Below, piece after piece: positions 3,146-34,433 of a stretch of DNA of 64,000 nt. The notes beneath the pieces were generated by a model. The model was not told the origin of the DNA. It worked only from the letters and a program-made list of their open reading frames with translations, and did not search any database. Position numbers and translations under genes: made by a program. The DNA comes from Acetivibrionales bacterium. Lineage in GTDB: Bacteria > Bacillota > Clostridia > Acetivibrionales > DTU013. Numbering within the stretch: the stretch's first letter is position 1; each line of letters starts with the position of its first letter. The DNA is taken from the NCBI GenBank assembly GCA_050952225.1, contig JBMNKL010000001.1, positions 238,589 to 302,588 on the forward strand, in the 5' to 3' direction.

Positions 3146-4004
3146 TCACTTACCCGGATAAACCTTATCGATAGTCCCAATAGCATAAAGAGGCAAGTTT
3201 ATCAGCCAATCCTCTTTTTTGTAATCTGCCATTGAAGTACGCACTGAGATTCTCGGATTGAATTTTTCACGGAAGGTCTTCAAACTTTTTGCCTGCAGGT
3301 TCACTTCGGCTTTTACTTCCAGGGGAATTACATCTTCGCCGTTATCAATAAGAAAATCAATCTCAGCACTATTCCTGTCATTAGTCCAATAATATGTGTT
3401 AATATTTTTAAGCGTTTTCAATTGCTGCAGGACATATTGTTCGGTCAATGCCCCCTTAAACTCCTTAAATAACTCGTTTCTGTCAAGCAGCACATCCTGG
3501 CGCAGGCGAACCATACAGGACAATAATCCGACGTCTAGCATAAATAATTTAAAAGCCTTCAAATCCTCATATGCTTTTTAGAGGCAGATTCGGAGCCGTC
3601 ACCCTGTTAACCATATGCGCAAGCCCGCAATCCGTCAGCCACAACATAGCCATTTCATATTCCTTTGCCCTTGCGCCTTCTTTAATCAAGCCATATATGA
3701 ACTTCTTGTTCTCTTTTGTCAGTTGTGAGGGTATACTGTTCCATAGCATCCTGATGCGTGGAACGACATTATAGGGAGCATGCTTTGAAAAATCCTGCTC
3801 ATAAGCATCCAATATCCGTCCCTGAATTTCTCTTGCCTCGTTAAAATCTTTATTTACAGAAAAATTATTTACCACTTCTGGCATACCGCCTACATAAAAA
3901 TATTGGGAGGTTCCCAAAGCTTTGACCTCCTTGAAATATTTAATGAAAATGCTCCGCAGTATCATATTGTTTGTGCCGGAAGCCTGCTGGGCGTTGCGCT
4001 TCAT
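3146..4004 (-). pseudogene. AAA ATPase with DUF4143 domain, 5'-truncated and frameshifted
   Basis: ORFs 3567-4004 and 3146-3562 together match the middle and C-terminal (DUF4143) parts of the widespread AAA/DUF4143 family (YFYVGGMPEVV, KAFKLFMLDVGLL, YYWTNDRNSAEIDFLI). Reading ...NLPLKS and shifting one frame gives YEDLKAFKLF, so there is a frameshift near 3562-3572. The P-loop N-terminal third is missing. Confidence 0.7.
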
Positions 4005-28651: not shown

Positions 28652-28806
28652 CTATACAACTCTTACATTCCCGCCCTGATACTTCGCTTTCGTCGCTTCT
28701 CCACCTCTGATATGCCTCTCTGCCTTGTTCTCCTCGAGCACTGCCCTTACACTGCCGGCAAGTTCGGGATTTACTTTAAGAAGCCTCTCAGTGACATCCT
28801 TGTGTA
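28652..28806 (-). CDS. spoIIID: spoIIID 3' segment (codons 38-87 of the reconstituted gene)
   Basis: Minus-strand reading gives ...(I)HKDVTERLLKVNPELAGSVRAVLEENKAERHIRGGEATKAKYQGGNVRVV* with stop at 28654-28652. This matches the C-terminal half of SpoIIID (B. subtilis ...STVHKDLTERL...RHLRGGEATK...). It has no start codon or RBS of its own. Confidence 0.85.
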
Positions 28807-28829
28807 TTGTGTTCAGCATCGGTGTCGGT
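28807..28829. repeat. element-end inverted repeat (recombinase-proximal end)
   Basis: Plus strand TTGTGTTCAGC-ATCGGTGTCGGT. The last 12 nt are the perfect reverse complement of 31972-31983, and the whole 23-mer matches the other end at 18/23. Confidence 0.75.
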
Positions 28830-28840
28830 TTTGTTACAGT

Positions 28841-30415
28841 TCAATGATGCTCCCGGAATATGTCGGATAGCCGGATAACGTAGTTCAGCCCTTCCATGTG
28901 TTCATCGATATTAAAACAGACGTAGATTTCCTCTCCGGACATCACCCTGATTTCCTTTACGATTTTTTTCAAATCGTTATTATCTATGCTTTCGGTAAAT
29001 CTGAAATTATCAAAAGCCTCCCTGAACCTTTTCAGGCATTCCCTGGTATGCCTGCTGAGCTCCCTGGTTTTGTCCGCACTGTTCAGTTTAAAGCTGAGCT
29101 TTTCAATCTCCGCGTTAACAGGCAGCATGTCCTGTTTTGCCTCCTCCATCGGTATCAGCCCGTCCAACGCCAACTCTTTCAAACGTTCGCGCCTGGCCGT
29201 GAGTTTCTCAAGCTGCTCCCTTGCTTCCTCAAGGTCATAGCCCTCGCTTGCCCGGACATATTCCCTGACCAGCGCGCTGCATTTTCGCTCTACTGACTCG
29301 AAGAAGGCGGCTTTATCACGTATGAGGCCGTTAAAGAGCCTGTCCAGTCCCTCTTTAAGCATGTCCTCATTTACCCTCGCGTATTCCGACTCGCAGCGGT
29401 TCTTCCCGTAAGCGCTCCTCTTTGAGCAAGTCCACCATACATATAAATGCCCGTTTGGCGAGTATCTCCTCTGGTACCGCCGGAAGGAAAAACCGCATGA
29501 TCCGCATTTAATCAGGTTGGAGAACAAGTGCTTCTCGCTCCTCCTGGTAAACGCGCAGTTGTATGCTTCGGCATTTAGCTTCATCTGCTCCTGTGCCTTA
29601 TAAAACTGCTCATCCGAGATTATGCGAAATTCCGGCCTTTCGACGACATACCATTTACTTTCAGGATTGTTAACCCTTTTATTGGTGAATATGTCTACGC
29701 TGCTCTGCTTTCCGTTTATAACACGGCCTATGTATATTTCATTTTTCAGTATTTTACCGACGGCCGTCTGCGACCAGTTGCAGCTGGGCTTTCCGTTCAC
29801 CGGCCTTTTGGTTTTAACCCCGCTCTGATACAAGTAGGAGGCAATCCTGGCCATGCCCCATTTTTCCTCGGTATAAAGGTCGAATATTTTGCGGACCCAT
29901 TTGCTTTCTTCGTCATTAGGGACAAGGTTGTAACGGTCAATCCTGTCATAACCGAAAACAAAGTTGGGCACCCTCCCCTTTTCCTTGCCTAACTGCTTGC
30001 CAAACTTGACCTTTTCCGAAATACGCTGGGACTCGCTCTCAGCCAGCATCGCCATCAGGTTTAAAGTAAAGCTGTCAATATCCTTGCCCTCACCCATATT
30101 GACAAGATGCAGGCTGACCCCGTAGGAATTCAGCTCCCTTGTAACGGTGATAAAATCCAGCGTGTTCCTGAAGAGCCTGCTGATATCCTTTACATAGAGC
30201 TTCTGAAACTCAGCGCGTTCAGCTGCCTTTCGCAAGCGCTGCAAGTCCTTCCTGTTCTGCATCTTTGTAGCCGACTTGCCCTTGTCGCAATAAACGGCTA
30301 CCAGCTCATCTCCCCTGGCAGGTATATACTTTTCAAAAAACTCACGCTGGTTTTCCAGCGAGCTTTGCTGTTCTTCCTTATCGGTACTGACCCTGATATA
30401 CGCGGCAGCCCTCAT
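28841..30415 (-). CDS. large serine recombinase (SpoIVCA/serine-integrase class)
   Basis: 524 aa. The N-terminal resolvase catalytic domain has AAYIRVSTDKEEQ (nucleophile Ser) and ISRLFRN. It is followed by a recombinase domain (WGMARIASYL, WSQTAVGKILKNEIYIG), a zinc-ribbon Cys cluster (CGSCG ... WWTCSKRSAYGKNRC) and a long coiled-coil C-terminus. The stop lies 11 nt from the 12-bp terminal repeat. Confidence 0.92.
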   Translation of the reverse strand: MRAAAYIRVSTDKEEQQSSLENQREFFEKYIPARGDELVAVYCDKGKSATKMQNRKDLQRLRKAAERAEFQKLYVKDISRLFRNTLDFITVTRELNSYGVSLHLVNMGEGKDIDSFTLNLMAMLAESESQRISEKVKFGKQLGKEKGRVPNFVFGYDRIDRYNLVPNDEESKWVRKIFDLYTEEKWGMARIASYLYQSGVKTKRPVNGKPSCNWSQTAVGKILKNEIYIGRVINGKQSSVDIFTNKRVNNPESKWYVVERPEFRIISDEQFYKAQEQMKLNAEAYNCAFTRRSEKHLFSNLIKCGSCGFSFRRYQRRYSPNGHLYVWWTCSKRSAYGKNRCESEYARVNEDMLKEGLDRLFNGLIRDKAAFFESVERKCSALVREYVRASEGYDLEEAREQLEKLTARRERLKELALDGLIPMEEAKQDMLPVNAEIEKLSFKLNSADKTRELSRHTRECLKRFREAFDNFRFTESIDNNDLKKIVKEIRVMSGEEIYVCFNIDEHMEGLNYVIRLSDIFREHH

Positions 30416-30666
30416 CCGCTATCATCCTTCCTGCCGCATTCTCCCGCATTTGTCAATGGCGGGACCCCTGGCTTCCCGCAGCTCGCCCGGTTTCCCATGT
30501 CGCCCGGATTACCATCCGCTGAACCGTCAACAGCATTCCCGGTGATATTTTCAACCACCGAATCAACAATATTTCTTGCAACCCCGGAGGACAACGCCTC
30601 CGATATAATTTCCAGGATGGCAGGATCAAGGTTTTCTTTCGTGTTGATTGGCTGAGCTTGTCCCAT
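30412..30666 (-). CDS. 84-aa acidic hypothetical protein, translationally coupled to the recombinase
   Basis: Its stop overlaps the recombinase ATG by 4 nt (ATGA). The sequence MGQAQPINTKENLDPAILEIISEALSSGVARNIVDSVVENITGNAVDG... has a helical acidic N-half and a Gly/Pro-rich tail. The RBS context is poor and an alternative frame exists (see rejected list). Function unknown. Confidence 0.4.
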   Translation of the reverse strand: MGQAQPINTKENLDPAILEIISEALSSGVARNIVDSVVENITGNAVDGSADGNPGDMGNRASCGKPGVPPLTNAGECGRKDDSG

Positions 30667-30695
30667 CTCCCTACCCCCAACGTTGTCTCCTTTTT

Positions 30696-30726
30696 AATGT
30701 ATATTTCCTGGACGGGGGATTTATTC
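30696..30726 (-). promoter_or_regulatory. weak sigma-E-like promoter candidate upstream of the small ORF/recombinase pair
   Basis: Gene strand: GAATAAA, 16 nt, TATACATT. The -10 matches CATACAHT at 7/8 and the -35 fits xxATAxx. The spacer is 2 nt longer than the 14 nt I recall for the B. subtilis sigma-E consensus. Confidence 0.2.
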
Positions 30727-30830
30727 TTATGCCAGCATCCGCCTGCGTGAAAAGATCCGCCTGTATATTTAGCGCACTTCACTTTATCAGCCCTGATTAT
30801 CACTGGCTCGCACATGTCTATGCCATCATA

Positions 30831-30860
30831 ACAAAAGGGAGAATCAGCATTCTCCCCTTT
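30831..30860 (-). terminator. intrinsic terminator after the SDR gene
   Basis: Gene strand GGGAGAAT-GCTG-ATTCTCCC followed by TTTTGTT, 40 nt after the SDR stop. Confidence 0.6.
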
Positions 30861-30901
30861 AATGTACTGGCCTGTTCACTTAAAACCATATATTTATATG
30901 C

Positions 30902-31663
30902 TTATCTCGACGCGTATCCGCCATCTACCTGAATCACGGCCCCGCTTAAATAATCAGACGCGGCGGAAGCAAGGAATATCACGGCACCTTTCATATCCGA
31001 CGGCTCTCCCCATCTGCCGGCCGGGATGCGTGACAAAATATCCCGGTTGCGTTCTTCGTCGTTCTTAAGTGCCATGCACATATCTGTCGCCATATATCCG
31101 GGAGCAATGGCATTTACATTTATGCCTTTGGATGCCCACTCATTCCCCAGGGTTTTTGTCATTTGGGCTAGACCGGCCTTGCTCGCTGTATAAGCCGGTA
31201 TTAAAATTCCTCCGAAATAGATACTCATCGAAAGAATATTTATTATCTTACCCTTCCCTTGCTTCAGCATTTCACGCCCCGCCAGCTGACAGAGAATAAA
31301 TGCTGACCGCAAATTCACGTTCATAATATCATCAAAATCACTCATTAAAAAATCTTCGCTGTTCCTCCTGCGTTGAATGCCTGCGTTGTTTACCAATATG
31401 TCGATCTTTCCGCCAAGCAAATCAAGCGCCTCTTTAAAAACACGCCTTGTATCCTCCTCATAAAGAAGATTGCCCCTTACAGCGTGTGCAGGATATCCGG
31501 CGGCACGAAACTCGCCGGCCTTCTTTTCAGCCTTATCCGAGCTTCCTGTCAAAACCACCTCGGCACCTGCTTCTAAAAGACCTTCCGCTATGCCGCTTCC
31601 CAGTCCGGTTCCTCCGCCTGTGACAAGTGCTTTTTTCCCAGTCAAATCAAACAATTTCATCAT
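30902..31663 (-). CDS. short-chain dehydrogenase/reductase (KduD / gluconate-5-dehydrogenase-like), cargo of the element
   Basis: 253 aa, classical SDR: VTGGGTGLGSG (TGxxxGxG), LVNNAGI, catalytic YTASK (YxxxK), IAPGYMATDM, and a C-terminal VIQVDGGY. Confidence 0.9.
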   Translation of the reverse strand: MMKLFDLTGKKALVTGGGTGLGSGIAEGLLEAGAEVVLTGSSDKAEKKAGEFRAAGYPAHAVRGNLLYEEDTRRVFKEALDLLGGKIDILVNNAGIQRRRNSEDFLMSDFDDIMNVNLRSAFILCQLAGREMLKQGKGKIINILSMSIYFGGILIPAYTASKAGLAQMTKTLGNEWASKGINVNAIAPGYMATDMCMALKNDEERNRDILSRIPAGRWGEPSDMKGAVIFLASAASDYLSGAVIQVDGGYASR

Positions 31664-31962
31664 CTATCATCTCCAGTCGCTAAATATATTATCATTGCTA
31701 ACTACACCATAAACCACGTTTCTTAGCATATACAGTGCGCTTAACAAGCCTGTCCATCGCTTGTGATAGATAAGATTTATGACATCGGTCATTATATTAC
31801 GTACCTGGTGCTATGCAGTGTGCAAGGATATTCTTATGACCAGGATGGCGAGAAAGCCTATATGTCAACAGTATTATACCACCTTTGGATACGCATAACA
31901 AGCAAGCCTTCGAATCCGCCGCTTGTCTGTGCAACCCTCGAAACAGCTGCCGGTGCCGGTCT

Positions 31963-32109
31963 TCAGCGGCGACCGACACCGATCCTTAACACCGTGTGTA
32001 CGGTGCTTTTGCTGATTCCAAATTTCTTAGCGGCCGCCCTTACGGTCGCTTTTTCCTCAATAATGTAATTTGCCAATTCTATAGCCCTCTCTTCAATATA
32101 TACCTTCAA
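31963..32109 (-). CDS. spoIIID: spoIIID 5' segment (codons 1-38) running into element sequence
   Basis: TTG start at 32109 with a GAAGAGGGGG RBS 9 nt upstream. It encodes (M)KVYIEERAIELANYIIEEKATVRAAAKKFGISKSTVH, the conserved SpoIIID N-terminal HTH. After His38 it reads 10 unrelated codons (TVLRIGVGRR) and stops at 31963. Genuine spoIIID sequence ends at 31995. Confidence 0.85.
   Translation of the reverse strand: MKVYIEERAIELANYIIEEKATVRAAAKKFGISKSTVHTVLRIGVGRR
31972..31994. repeat. element-end inverted repeat (spoIIID 5'-proximal end)
   Basis: Plus strand ACCGACACCGAT-CCTTAACACCG. The first 12 nt are the perfect reverse complement of 28818-28829. It sits 11 nt from the core copy, the same spacing as at the other end. 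Confidence 0.75.
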
Positions 32110-32235: not shown

Positions 32236-32264
32236 TATATATGCCGTCTGCGCCGTCTATATGA
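32236..32264 (-). promoter_or_regulatory. sigma-E-like promoter candidate for spoIIID
   Basis: Gene strand: TCATATA, 14 nt, CATATATA. The -35 fits the xxATAxx heptamer, the spacing equals the 14 nt I recall for the B. subtilis sigma-E consensus, and the -10 matches CATACAHT at 6/8. It lies about 125 nt upstream of the TTG start. Confidence 0.3.
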
Positions 32265-34351: not shown

Positions 34352-34403
34352 CCGGACCCCCTGGATCAGCTTTCCTGAATTATCACGTTATATATATTCA
34401 CAT

Positions 34404-34433
34404 AAAAAAAAAGTATGCAGCTTATCCGCATAC
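34404..34433 (-). terminator. intrinsic terminator after murA
   Basis: Gene strand GTATGC-GGATAAGCT-GCATAC followed by T9. Confidence 0.7.

Follow-up and report, generated by a model that had tools for sequence, protein, structure and literature searches.

What is the significance of a spoIIID gene that is broken in two by an insertion and reads as an intact gene once that insertion is taken out? The question is raised by a stretch of DNA from an Acetivibrionales bacterium (assembly GCA_050952225.1, contig JBMNKL010000001.1, positions 238,589–302,588), here termed the window, i.e. the whole 64,000 nucleotides that were analysed. The first transcription factor that the mother cell makes under sigma-E is SpoIIID, on which sigK expression and excision of the skin element depend in model organisms. 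Intervening elements of the skin kind are well known from sigK, spoVFB, spoVR, spsM and gerE. A preliminary description, made from the letters of the window, proposed that a small element carrying a large serine recombinase (LSR) splits spoIIID in frame and has a skin-like architecture, and the in-silico tests that it suggested uphold this proposal. It is practically certain that the window sequence represents an LSR-borne intervening element in spoIIID.

The gene is on the minus strand and is broken at residues 37/38 (Val37/His38); coordinates of all features are listed in Table 1. The 5′ fragment encodes MKVYIEERAIELANYIIEEKATVRAAAKKFGISKSTVH, followed by 10 unrelated codons and a stop, just as the preliminary description had read it. 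Its TTG start codon is also found in the orthologues of L010, L061, L066 and L085 (the loci compared here carry L numbers). The 3′ fragment reads ...HKDVTERLLKVNPELAGSVRAVLEENKAERHIRGGEATKAKYQGGNVRVV or, when followed from His38, HKDVTERL...RHIRGGEATKAKYQGGNVRVV, and ends at 28652. Computational removal of the insert and translation of what is left gives the predicted in-frame fusion, a 264-nt open reading frame (ORF) of 87 aa. The hidden Markov models of the family recognize the reconstituted ORF over its full length, which is the outcome the preliminary description had expected: the Pfam SpoIIID profile PF12116 is matched with 142 bits over positions 2–79 of 82, and the NCBIfam equivalog TIGR02844 with 133.1 bits (cut-off 111.5) over positions 2–79 of 80. 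It also aligns with residues 2–82 of Bacillus subtilis SpoIIID (PDB 2L0K; E = 1.6e-27). The 48-aa product of the 5′ fragment by itself covers PF12116 positions 2–38 only. The closest uninterrupted homologues are up to 90% identical to the reconstituted ORF and have the same length, 87 aa. In the AlphaFold model of the intact homologue with 90% identity, helices are predicted at residues 2–19, 23–30, 34–48 and 50–80. As the predicted third helix spans residues 34–48, the break would fall inside the third helix of the helix-turn-helix (HTH), and this agrees with its earlier placement in the recognition helix.

Neither spoIIID half has a stop codon or a frameshift. Strong purifying selection on both halves is evident from a comparison with the intact L089 allele: the ratio of nonsynonymous to synonymous substitution rates (dN/dS) is 0.04 in the 5′ part of the gene and 0.10 in the 3′ part. 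Searches of the 64-kb window by tblastn with three SpoIIID queries detected no second spoIIID. The relative L089 (metagenome-assembled genome [MAG] GCA_050261495.1) supplies the uninterrupted allele that the preliminary description recommended looking for. Its intact spoIIID is colinear with the split gene and is found within spoIIT-murA-spoIID-M23-spoIIID-mbl-flgF-flgG, a synteny identical to that of the window. The flanks of the two loci share 85–89% nucleotide identity, the region upstream of spoIIID is conserved between them, and when the insert is left out the junction aligns with zero gaps and zero extra bases. Genes flanking the split gene are spoIID (TIGR02870, 331 bits), an M23 peptidase in the SpoIIQ position and MreB/Mbl. 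The spoIID-spoIIQ-spoIIID-mbl order proposed earlier is thus borne out, the place of SpoIIQ being held by the M23 peptidase. The GC content of the insert is 0.48 and that of the window 0.46, and by this comparison the insert shows no compositional anomaly.

Both junctions of the insert carry an identical 6-bp core, TACACA. Next to the cores are inverted-repeat arms of 21 nt (28809–28829 and 31972–31992), which are imperfect and 90% complementary; they correspond to P and P′ of an attP site. The arms are symmetrical about the CA of the His38 codon, and we therefore infer that this CA (31998–31997 in attL, 28804–28803 in attR) is the central dinucleotide at which crossover would occur. The deduced attB of the element is CAGCAAAAGCACCGTACACAAGGATGTCACTGAG and the deduced attP ..GCTGAACACAATACACACGGTGTTAAGGATCGG.., and att sites with this layout were seen at 75 attR and 22 attL junctions in the family described below.

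Only three genes are present in the element: a short-chain dehydrogenase/reductase (SDR), a small ORF termed orf84, and the LSR. No structured RNA was found in it with Rfam (E ≤ 0.1). A phage origin was considered and rejected, as there are no phage structural, lysis or replication genes and the closest LSR from a phage record is 35% identical; this record is an unannotated 6.4-kb gut sequence. Relatives of the LSR in IMG/VR are limited to 13 full-length proteins (34–40% identical) and one weak partial match. From its sequence, the element is best explained as a minimal non-phage gene-intervening element that would have been placed into the His38 codon by its own LSR.

The 524-aa LSR has the orientation given for it in the preliminary description and the three Pfam domains listed in Table 1, and its stop codon is 10 nt from the terminal repeat. 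The protein keeps all 79 columns that are invariant in a 20-member alignment, and among the invariant residues present are R8, S10, R80, R83, C304, C307, C330 and C341. Relative to the LSR of L010, the proportions of nonsynonymous and synonymous differences are pN = 0.10 and pS = 0.72. Membership in the equivalog families XisF and CcrA/B/C is rejected: XisF is the best NCBIfam match with 107.8 bits, far below the cut-off of 375, and CcrB gives 94.7 bits against 900.

The site-specificity of this recombinase is seen when its relatives are compared. A protein search detected recombinases 45–88% identical to the window LSR. One genome per GTDB species was scanned, 352 relatives were found, and the best 79 loci were kept. 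In 65 of the 79 loci a spoIIID 3′ fragment is found downstream of the LSR on the same strand, and in four others this fragment was missed by the filter, is cut by a contig end, or is reversed. Wherever a spoIIID fragment is present, the break is at residue 35–37, always. The 5′ fragment is also within reach in 22 sequences, and the elements there are 3.0 to 13.6 kb long. Among the hosts are Acetivibrionales, Carboxydocellales, Oscillospiraceae, Peptococcaceae, Tissierellia, Lachnospiraceae, Christensenellaceae and one Bacillales MAG. Members of the family are also present in cultured strains, among them Dysosmobacter segnis BX15, Zhenhengia yiwuensis NSJ-12, Acetanaerobacterium elongatum, Lachnospiraceae bacterium 3-1, Caproiciproducens galactitolivorans BS-1, Anaerocolumna aminovalerica DSM 1283, Anaerocolumna sp. 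MB42-C2 and Clostridium sp. KNHs205. The architecture is shared by dozens of genomes, and a complete chromosome is among them. LSRs with 72–80% identity to that of the window are found in the first five of these host groups, Acetivibrionales to Tissierellia; as these belong to different orders, the family moves horizontally.

Cargo genes differ between family members. They include genes for a flavin reductase-rubredoxin fusion, permeases, AAA ATPases, DNA methylases, SNF2 helicases, S-layer proteins and restriction-type functions, and no phage or conjugation functions were found among the genes of 20 relatives. The closest genome relative, an Acetivibrionales MAG (L010, 8578–11607), has an LSR with 80% identity and a 3.0-kb element that contains the same recombination module and a different sole cargo gene, the flavin reductase-rubredoxin fusion. 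Cargo thus seems to be swapped like a cassette among the elements. Some of the larger elements carry cargo that is defence-like (L004, 1–7155; L011, 5746–8544; L021, 2152–6999; L024, 2608–6865), for example an N6/N4 methylase with SNF2 helicase, DUF4391 and ResIII-type endonuclease, as well as AAA_21 (AbiEii-like) ATPases, AAA_14-DUF4143 ATPases and an N6 methylase. There are also exceptions to the family layout. In L013 (2848–3050) the LSR (75% identical) and right arm are followed by unrelated GC-rich sequence and not by spoIIID, and either off-target insertion or chimerism of the contig may account for this. In L079 (9625–13685) the LSR is inverted relative to spoIIID, with its 5′ end toward the 3′ fragment.

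Some relatives have a full-length spoIIID in addition to the split one. The element of L061 (8263–8749) carries a 94-aa spoIIID just inside attL, which is 51% identical to the host gene and starts 2 nt past the stop of the 5′ fragment. A full-length spoIIID is found in the same place in L066 (2172–2644). L085 (Clostridium sp. KNHs205; 2182–2427 and 3637–3765) has an intact spoIIID 1.2 kb upstream of the split copy. These copies look like a replacement strategy, an alternative to excision.

The recombinase ORFs of many relatives extend through the right arm of the element, which encodes a C-terminal ...DTNTxxxT; some end on a host-derived stop (ACA TAA, as in the attR listed for L004 and L010), and some continue into spoIIID in another frame. 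Three protein clusters (P0111, P0114 and P0117, from L007–L009) are in-frame LSR-SpoIIID fusions of 577–590 aa with PF12116. The C-terminus of such an enzyme would therefore differ between the integrated and the excised state. In the window, the LSR and the 3′ part of spoIIID are in one frame (28804–28843, minus strand) and are set apart by a TGA (28843–28841) and 12 sense codons. This is probably chance, with one frame in three expected to coincide; read-through of the TGA would yield an LSR-SpoIIID-C fusion as in the relatives.

Most family members have a small ORF (~30–140 aa as called) directly upstream of the LSR. In the subfamily of the window this ORF encodes the motif LDPxILxxIxExLxxGIARxIV. 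The window ORF, orf84, belongs to no family in Pfam, NCBIfam or PHROGs. By analogy of position and size with SprB, CD1234 and GirX, it is a candidate recombination directionality factor (RDF).

The promoter upstream of orf84 and the LSR has a GAATAAA box and a ATATACATTA box that are invariant, with a variable spacer, in nine loci of different host orders. It resembles the spoIIID and spoIID promoters of the window itself. In B. subtilis and Clostridioides difficile, spoIID and spoIIID are sigma-E-dependent and spoIIID is expressed in the mother cell. Together, the two putative window promoters serve as a local reference for mother-cell promoters of this organism. In sequence, the orf84-LSR promoter also resembles the B. 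subtilis sigma-E consensus, which is kmATAww-N14-CATACAnT. A composite motif has three matches in 64 kb (spoIIID, spoIID and orf84-LSR), with 0.12 expected; as it was built post hoc from its three sites, it shows specificity and is no independent test.

Most close relatives have, in addition, a sigma-A promoter close to the consensus (TTGACN-17-TATAAT), placed after the small ORF and before the LSR. When window positions 30416–30480 (minus strand) are compared with L004 7940–8000, ~30 nt are missing from the window, including the sigma-A −10 box and one arm of a small inverted repeat. The missing stretch is present in L004, L010, L012–L015, L017, L018, L022 and L023; L011 has a deletion similar to that of the window. 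Through the deletion the −10 box has gone and the orf84 frame has been fused up to the LSR start, and both genes would therefore depend on the sigma-E-like promoter. As all genes are co-oriented, read-through from the spoIIID promoter was also considered as a source of LSR transcription; this is unlikely, given the terminator 3′ of the SDR gene and the module's own conserved promoter. The terminator-like hairpin would insulate the recombinase module from upstream read-through.

Table 1. Positions of the split spoIIID gene, the intervening element and associated features in the window
Feature	Position	Strand	Description
spoIIID 5′ fragment	31963..32109	−	TTG start at 32109; codons 1–38 (32109–31996) and 10 element-encoded codons; stop at 31963
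spoIIID 3′ fragment	28652..28804	−	His38 codon to stop
Putative sigma-E-type spoIIID promoter	32236..32264	−	TCATATA-N14-CATATATA; read from sequence, kept in uninterrupted L089
Intervening element	28807..32000	−	3,194 bp; the choice of register in the 6-bp core makes no difference to the product
attL	31971..32020	−	Host B arm ..AGCAAAAGCACCGTA; core TACACA 32000–31995; element P′ arm CACGGTGTTAAGGATCGGTGTCGGT
attR	28785..28830	−	Element P arm AACCGACACCGATGCTGAACACAA; core TACACA 28806–28801; host B′ arm AGGATGTCACTGAG
LSR	28841..30415	−	524 aa; Resolvase, Recombinase and Zn_ribbon_recom domains
orf84	30412..30666	−	Motif LDPxILxxIxExLxxGIARxIV; stop overlaps LSR start (ATGA)
orf84-LSR module promoter, sigma-E-like	30698..30726	−	GAATAAA-N14-AATATACA; extended box ATATACATTA
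SDR cargo gene	30902..31663	−	253 aa, KduD/gluconate-5-dehydrogenase-like; TIGR01832 305.9 bits, below the 338.85 cut-off
SDR promoter, sigma-70-type	31873..31901	−	TTGTTA-17-TGnTATAAT; 10/12 matches, extended −10
Intrinsic-terminator-like hairpin	30838..30857	−	3′ of SDR cargo gene
Putative sigma-E-type spoIID promoter	34391–34418	−	GCATACT-N13-AATATATA; ~40 nt upstream of start codon

How, then, might the split gene be expressed? Probably the LSR and orf84, both under the sigma-E-type promoter, cut the element out in the mother cell and spoIIID is rebuilt; it is the likeness of the orf84-LSR promoter to those of spoIID and spoIIID that makes excision in the mother cell likely. The element would stay in place in vegetative cells and in the forespore, and would thus be inherited through the spore. 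In the mother cell, sigma-E RNA polymerase would transcribe orf84 and the LSR from GAATAAA-N14-AATATACA. With orf84 as directionality factor, the LSR would recombine attL with attR at the central CA, which would release a 3.2-kb circle and restore an 87-aa spoIIID behind its own promoter of the sigma-E type. A DNA rearrangement would thus have to come before SpoIIID could be made and before any later step could follow. The SDR cargo would be an independent vegetative transcription unit.

Two observations, one from a metagenome and one from a cultured strain, bear on this proposal. In L016 (2470–2610; contig CAAGHA010000057.1, 5.1 kb, gut metagenome) the right end of an element is joined to the left end at the predicted core. 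The ends are 92–94% identical to those of the L017 element, which is itself integrated in spoIIID. By its sequence the joint is an attP junction, derived from an excised circle or from a tandem copy. The contig has been binned as Bacteroidales, and this binning is probably wrong. In Ruminiclostridium cellulolyticum H10, spoIIID contains a skin-like element of 64.7 kb (Galperin et al., 2022; bioRxiv 10.1101/2022.02.25.481979, Table S3), and the H10 wild type yields 35.7% heat-resistant survivors (PMC3936895). H10 thus sporulates well with a split spoIIID, so that in at least one strain the split does not preclude efficient sporulation.

It should be pointed out that several findings weigh against mother-cell excision. 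One IUPAC pattern for attB, attP, attL and attR of the window element gave 0 matches in the metagenome contigs searched; since the pattern matches both window junctions, that collection is without this organism. A family-level attP pattern likewise gave 0 matches in metagenome contigs and 0 in viral contigs. The candidate factor orf84 has no similarity to any known RDF, and the sigma-E assignment of its promoter draws on resemblance to a consensus and on the post hoc motif. The window is without the sigma-A promoter that stands directly upstream of the LSR in most close relatives, and its LSR ends ~12 residues before those of relatives, after a 5-nt length difference. Finally, as some relatives carry their own full-length spoIIID, the family is not always reliant on excision.

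The main rival reading is an ordinary integrative island that uses the conserved recognition-helix codons, a sequence dispensable in vegetative growth, as attB and undergoes no programmed excision, its carrier being either asporogenous or in possession of another spoIIID copy. The horizontal movement indicated by LSRs that remain 72–80% identical across orders is what an island would show, as are miscellaneous cargo (methylases, AAA ATPases, permeases, S-layer proteins) and the sigma-A-type LSR promoter of most close relatives, and the replacement spoIIID of L061 and L066 would be needless if excision always restored the gene. We nevertheless regard an island of this type as less likely. The neighbouring sporulation genes are intact, as are both spoIIID halves, which are also constrained; the conserved promoter before the small ORF resembles those of the host spoIID and spoIIID genes, and the vegetative LSR promoter has been lost from the window element. 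Moreover, R. cellulolyticum H10 sporulates with a split gene, and for every characterised element built in this way the mother cell is where excision occurs (PMC5595907, PMC5025042, PMC4191935).

The shortened LSR, together with the deletion that took the sigma-A −10 box and fused the orf84 frame to the LSR start, might suggest a decayed, immobile remnant with a dead recombinase module and a spoIIID gene that is permanently inactivated. Decay is quite improbable, however, as all invariant LSR residues are kept, other LSRs of the family are equally short (511–518 aa), the inverted-repeat arms are 90% complementary, and the spoIIID halves have no stop or frameshift and an omega of 0.04–0.10. In addition, the arrangement was assembled independently from three samples: the 3,194-bp insert is present in three independent JGI metagenome contigs, and one of these, L001, shows 100% identity with the window over 4.2 kb. 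The same finding bears on the thought that assembly or binning joined unrelated sequence inside spoIIID, which the origin of the window in a MAG brings to mind. An artefact is effectively refuted, because the insert recurs with the same junctions in the three independent assemblies; dozens of genomes, cultured isolates and the complete chromosome included, also have the same architecture. Excision of the element in the mother cell thus continues to be the explanation that we favour.

The target gene is not strictly new, as the preliminary description had thought it might be, since Galperin et al. (2022) already mention the H10 spoIIID element once. This mention (one sentence and a supplementary table) is the one prior record of the target found in the literature searched; no experimental study was found there, nor any that deals with the spoIIID site, with the recombinase clade or with how the clade is regulated and distributed. 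The family-wide picture appears to be undescribed.

A broader interpretation can be put forward, tentatively and with the doubt outweighing the confidence. A Clostridia-wide family of mobile non-phage cassettes, specific for one spoIIID codon, might act as a timer between the activation of sigma-E and the synthesis of SpoIIID, and would then be the earliest such checkpoint in the mother-cell cascade. Each cassette would consist of a sigma-E-type promoter, a small RDF-like ORF, an LSR, an attP and interchangeable cargo. The window copy, having lost the vegetative LSR promoter, would be a domesticated, excision-only form, and the sister elements with a replacement spoIIID would represent another solution to the same problem. 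If spoIIID has to be rebuilt by recombination before it can be used, the developmental DNA checkpoint would lie one tier above that of any studied system, and SpoIIID would be unusable there as co-activator. At least 65 species-level genomes share the site, the conserved RDF-like ORF and the promoter, and as cultured strains are included the hypothesis is directly testable.

There are also practical consequences. Annotation will score spoIIID of carriers as missing or as a pseudogene, and sporulation capacity will be under-predicted. Compact attB/attP pairs are potential tools for genome engineering. In addition, spoIIID has been reported in clostridial phages (phi6013, phi3626, phiCP51) and in gut viromes (PMC5027557, PMC12713726); some of these phage-encoded spoIIID calls may be replacement copies, or host fragments at the borders of prophages or elements.

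Among the closest known systems is the element of R. cellulolyticum H10 (Ccel_3110/Ccel_3179, recombinase Ccel_3111), from a clostridial cellulolytic spore-former. The target gene is the same and a 511-aa LSR lies beside one gene fragment; in the table listing by which the two were compared, the spoIIID fragments are 144 and 126 nt, compatible with the break point of the window. The H10 element differs in its length of 64.7 kb, compared with 3.2 kb, and is listed without att sites, regulation or experiment.

The skin element of B. subtilis, with its recombinase SpoIVCA, is similar in that the window LSR, like spoIVCA, seems tied to a sporulation-type promoter. It differs in its target, sigK, and in being a 48-kb defective prophage, and the window element is not skin proper, its target being spoIIID. 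Expression of spoIVCA requires both sigma-E and SpoIIID (PMC6957869). SpoIIID cannot be required for excision in the window, because spoIIID is the gene being rebuilt.

In C. difficile, the logic of skinCd (CD1231 recombinase, CD1234 RDF; PMC5025042) is like that of the close relatives of the window element, where a vegetative-type promoter serves the LSR and a separate, sigma-E-like one serves a small acidic ORF. The recombinase is constitutive and the RDF developmentally controlled in both C. difficile skin and SPbeta (PMC5025042, PMC4191935). Differences are that CD1234 also needs SpoIIID, that the target is sigK, and that orf84 has no sequence similarity to known RDFs. SPbeta in spsM, with SprA and SprB (PMC4191935, PMC5499854), shares the unit of LSR, small RDF and attP, the RDF being restricted to the mother cell; unlike the window element, which has no phage genes, it is an active prophage and is also excised on DNA damage.

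The gin element in gerE of Bacillus cereus (GirC/GirX; PMC5595907) resembles that of the window in being non-phage, in having a small (~75–90 aa) mother-cell HTH regulator as its target, in combining an LSR with a small accessory protein (GirX, 42 aa), and in its short overlapping core. It differs in its size of 28.6 kb and in its three recombinases. A more distant parallel is the XisF/fdxN element of heterocystous cyanobacteria, which differs in phylum and target and shares developmental excision in a terminally differentiated cell. As to the place of the target in development, gerE is the last regulator of the mother-cell cascade, whereas spoIIID is the first after sigma-E.

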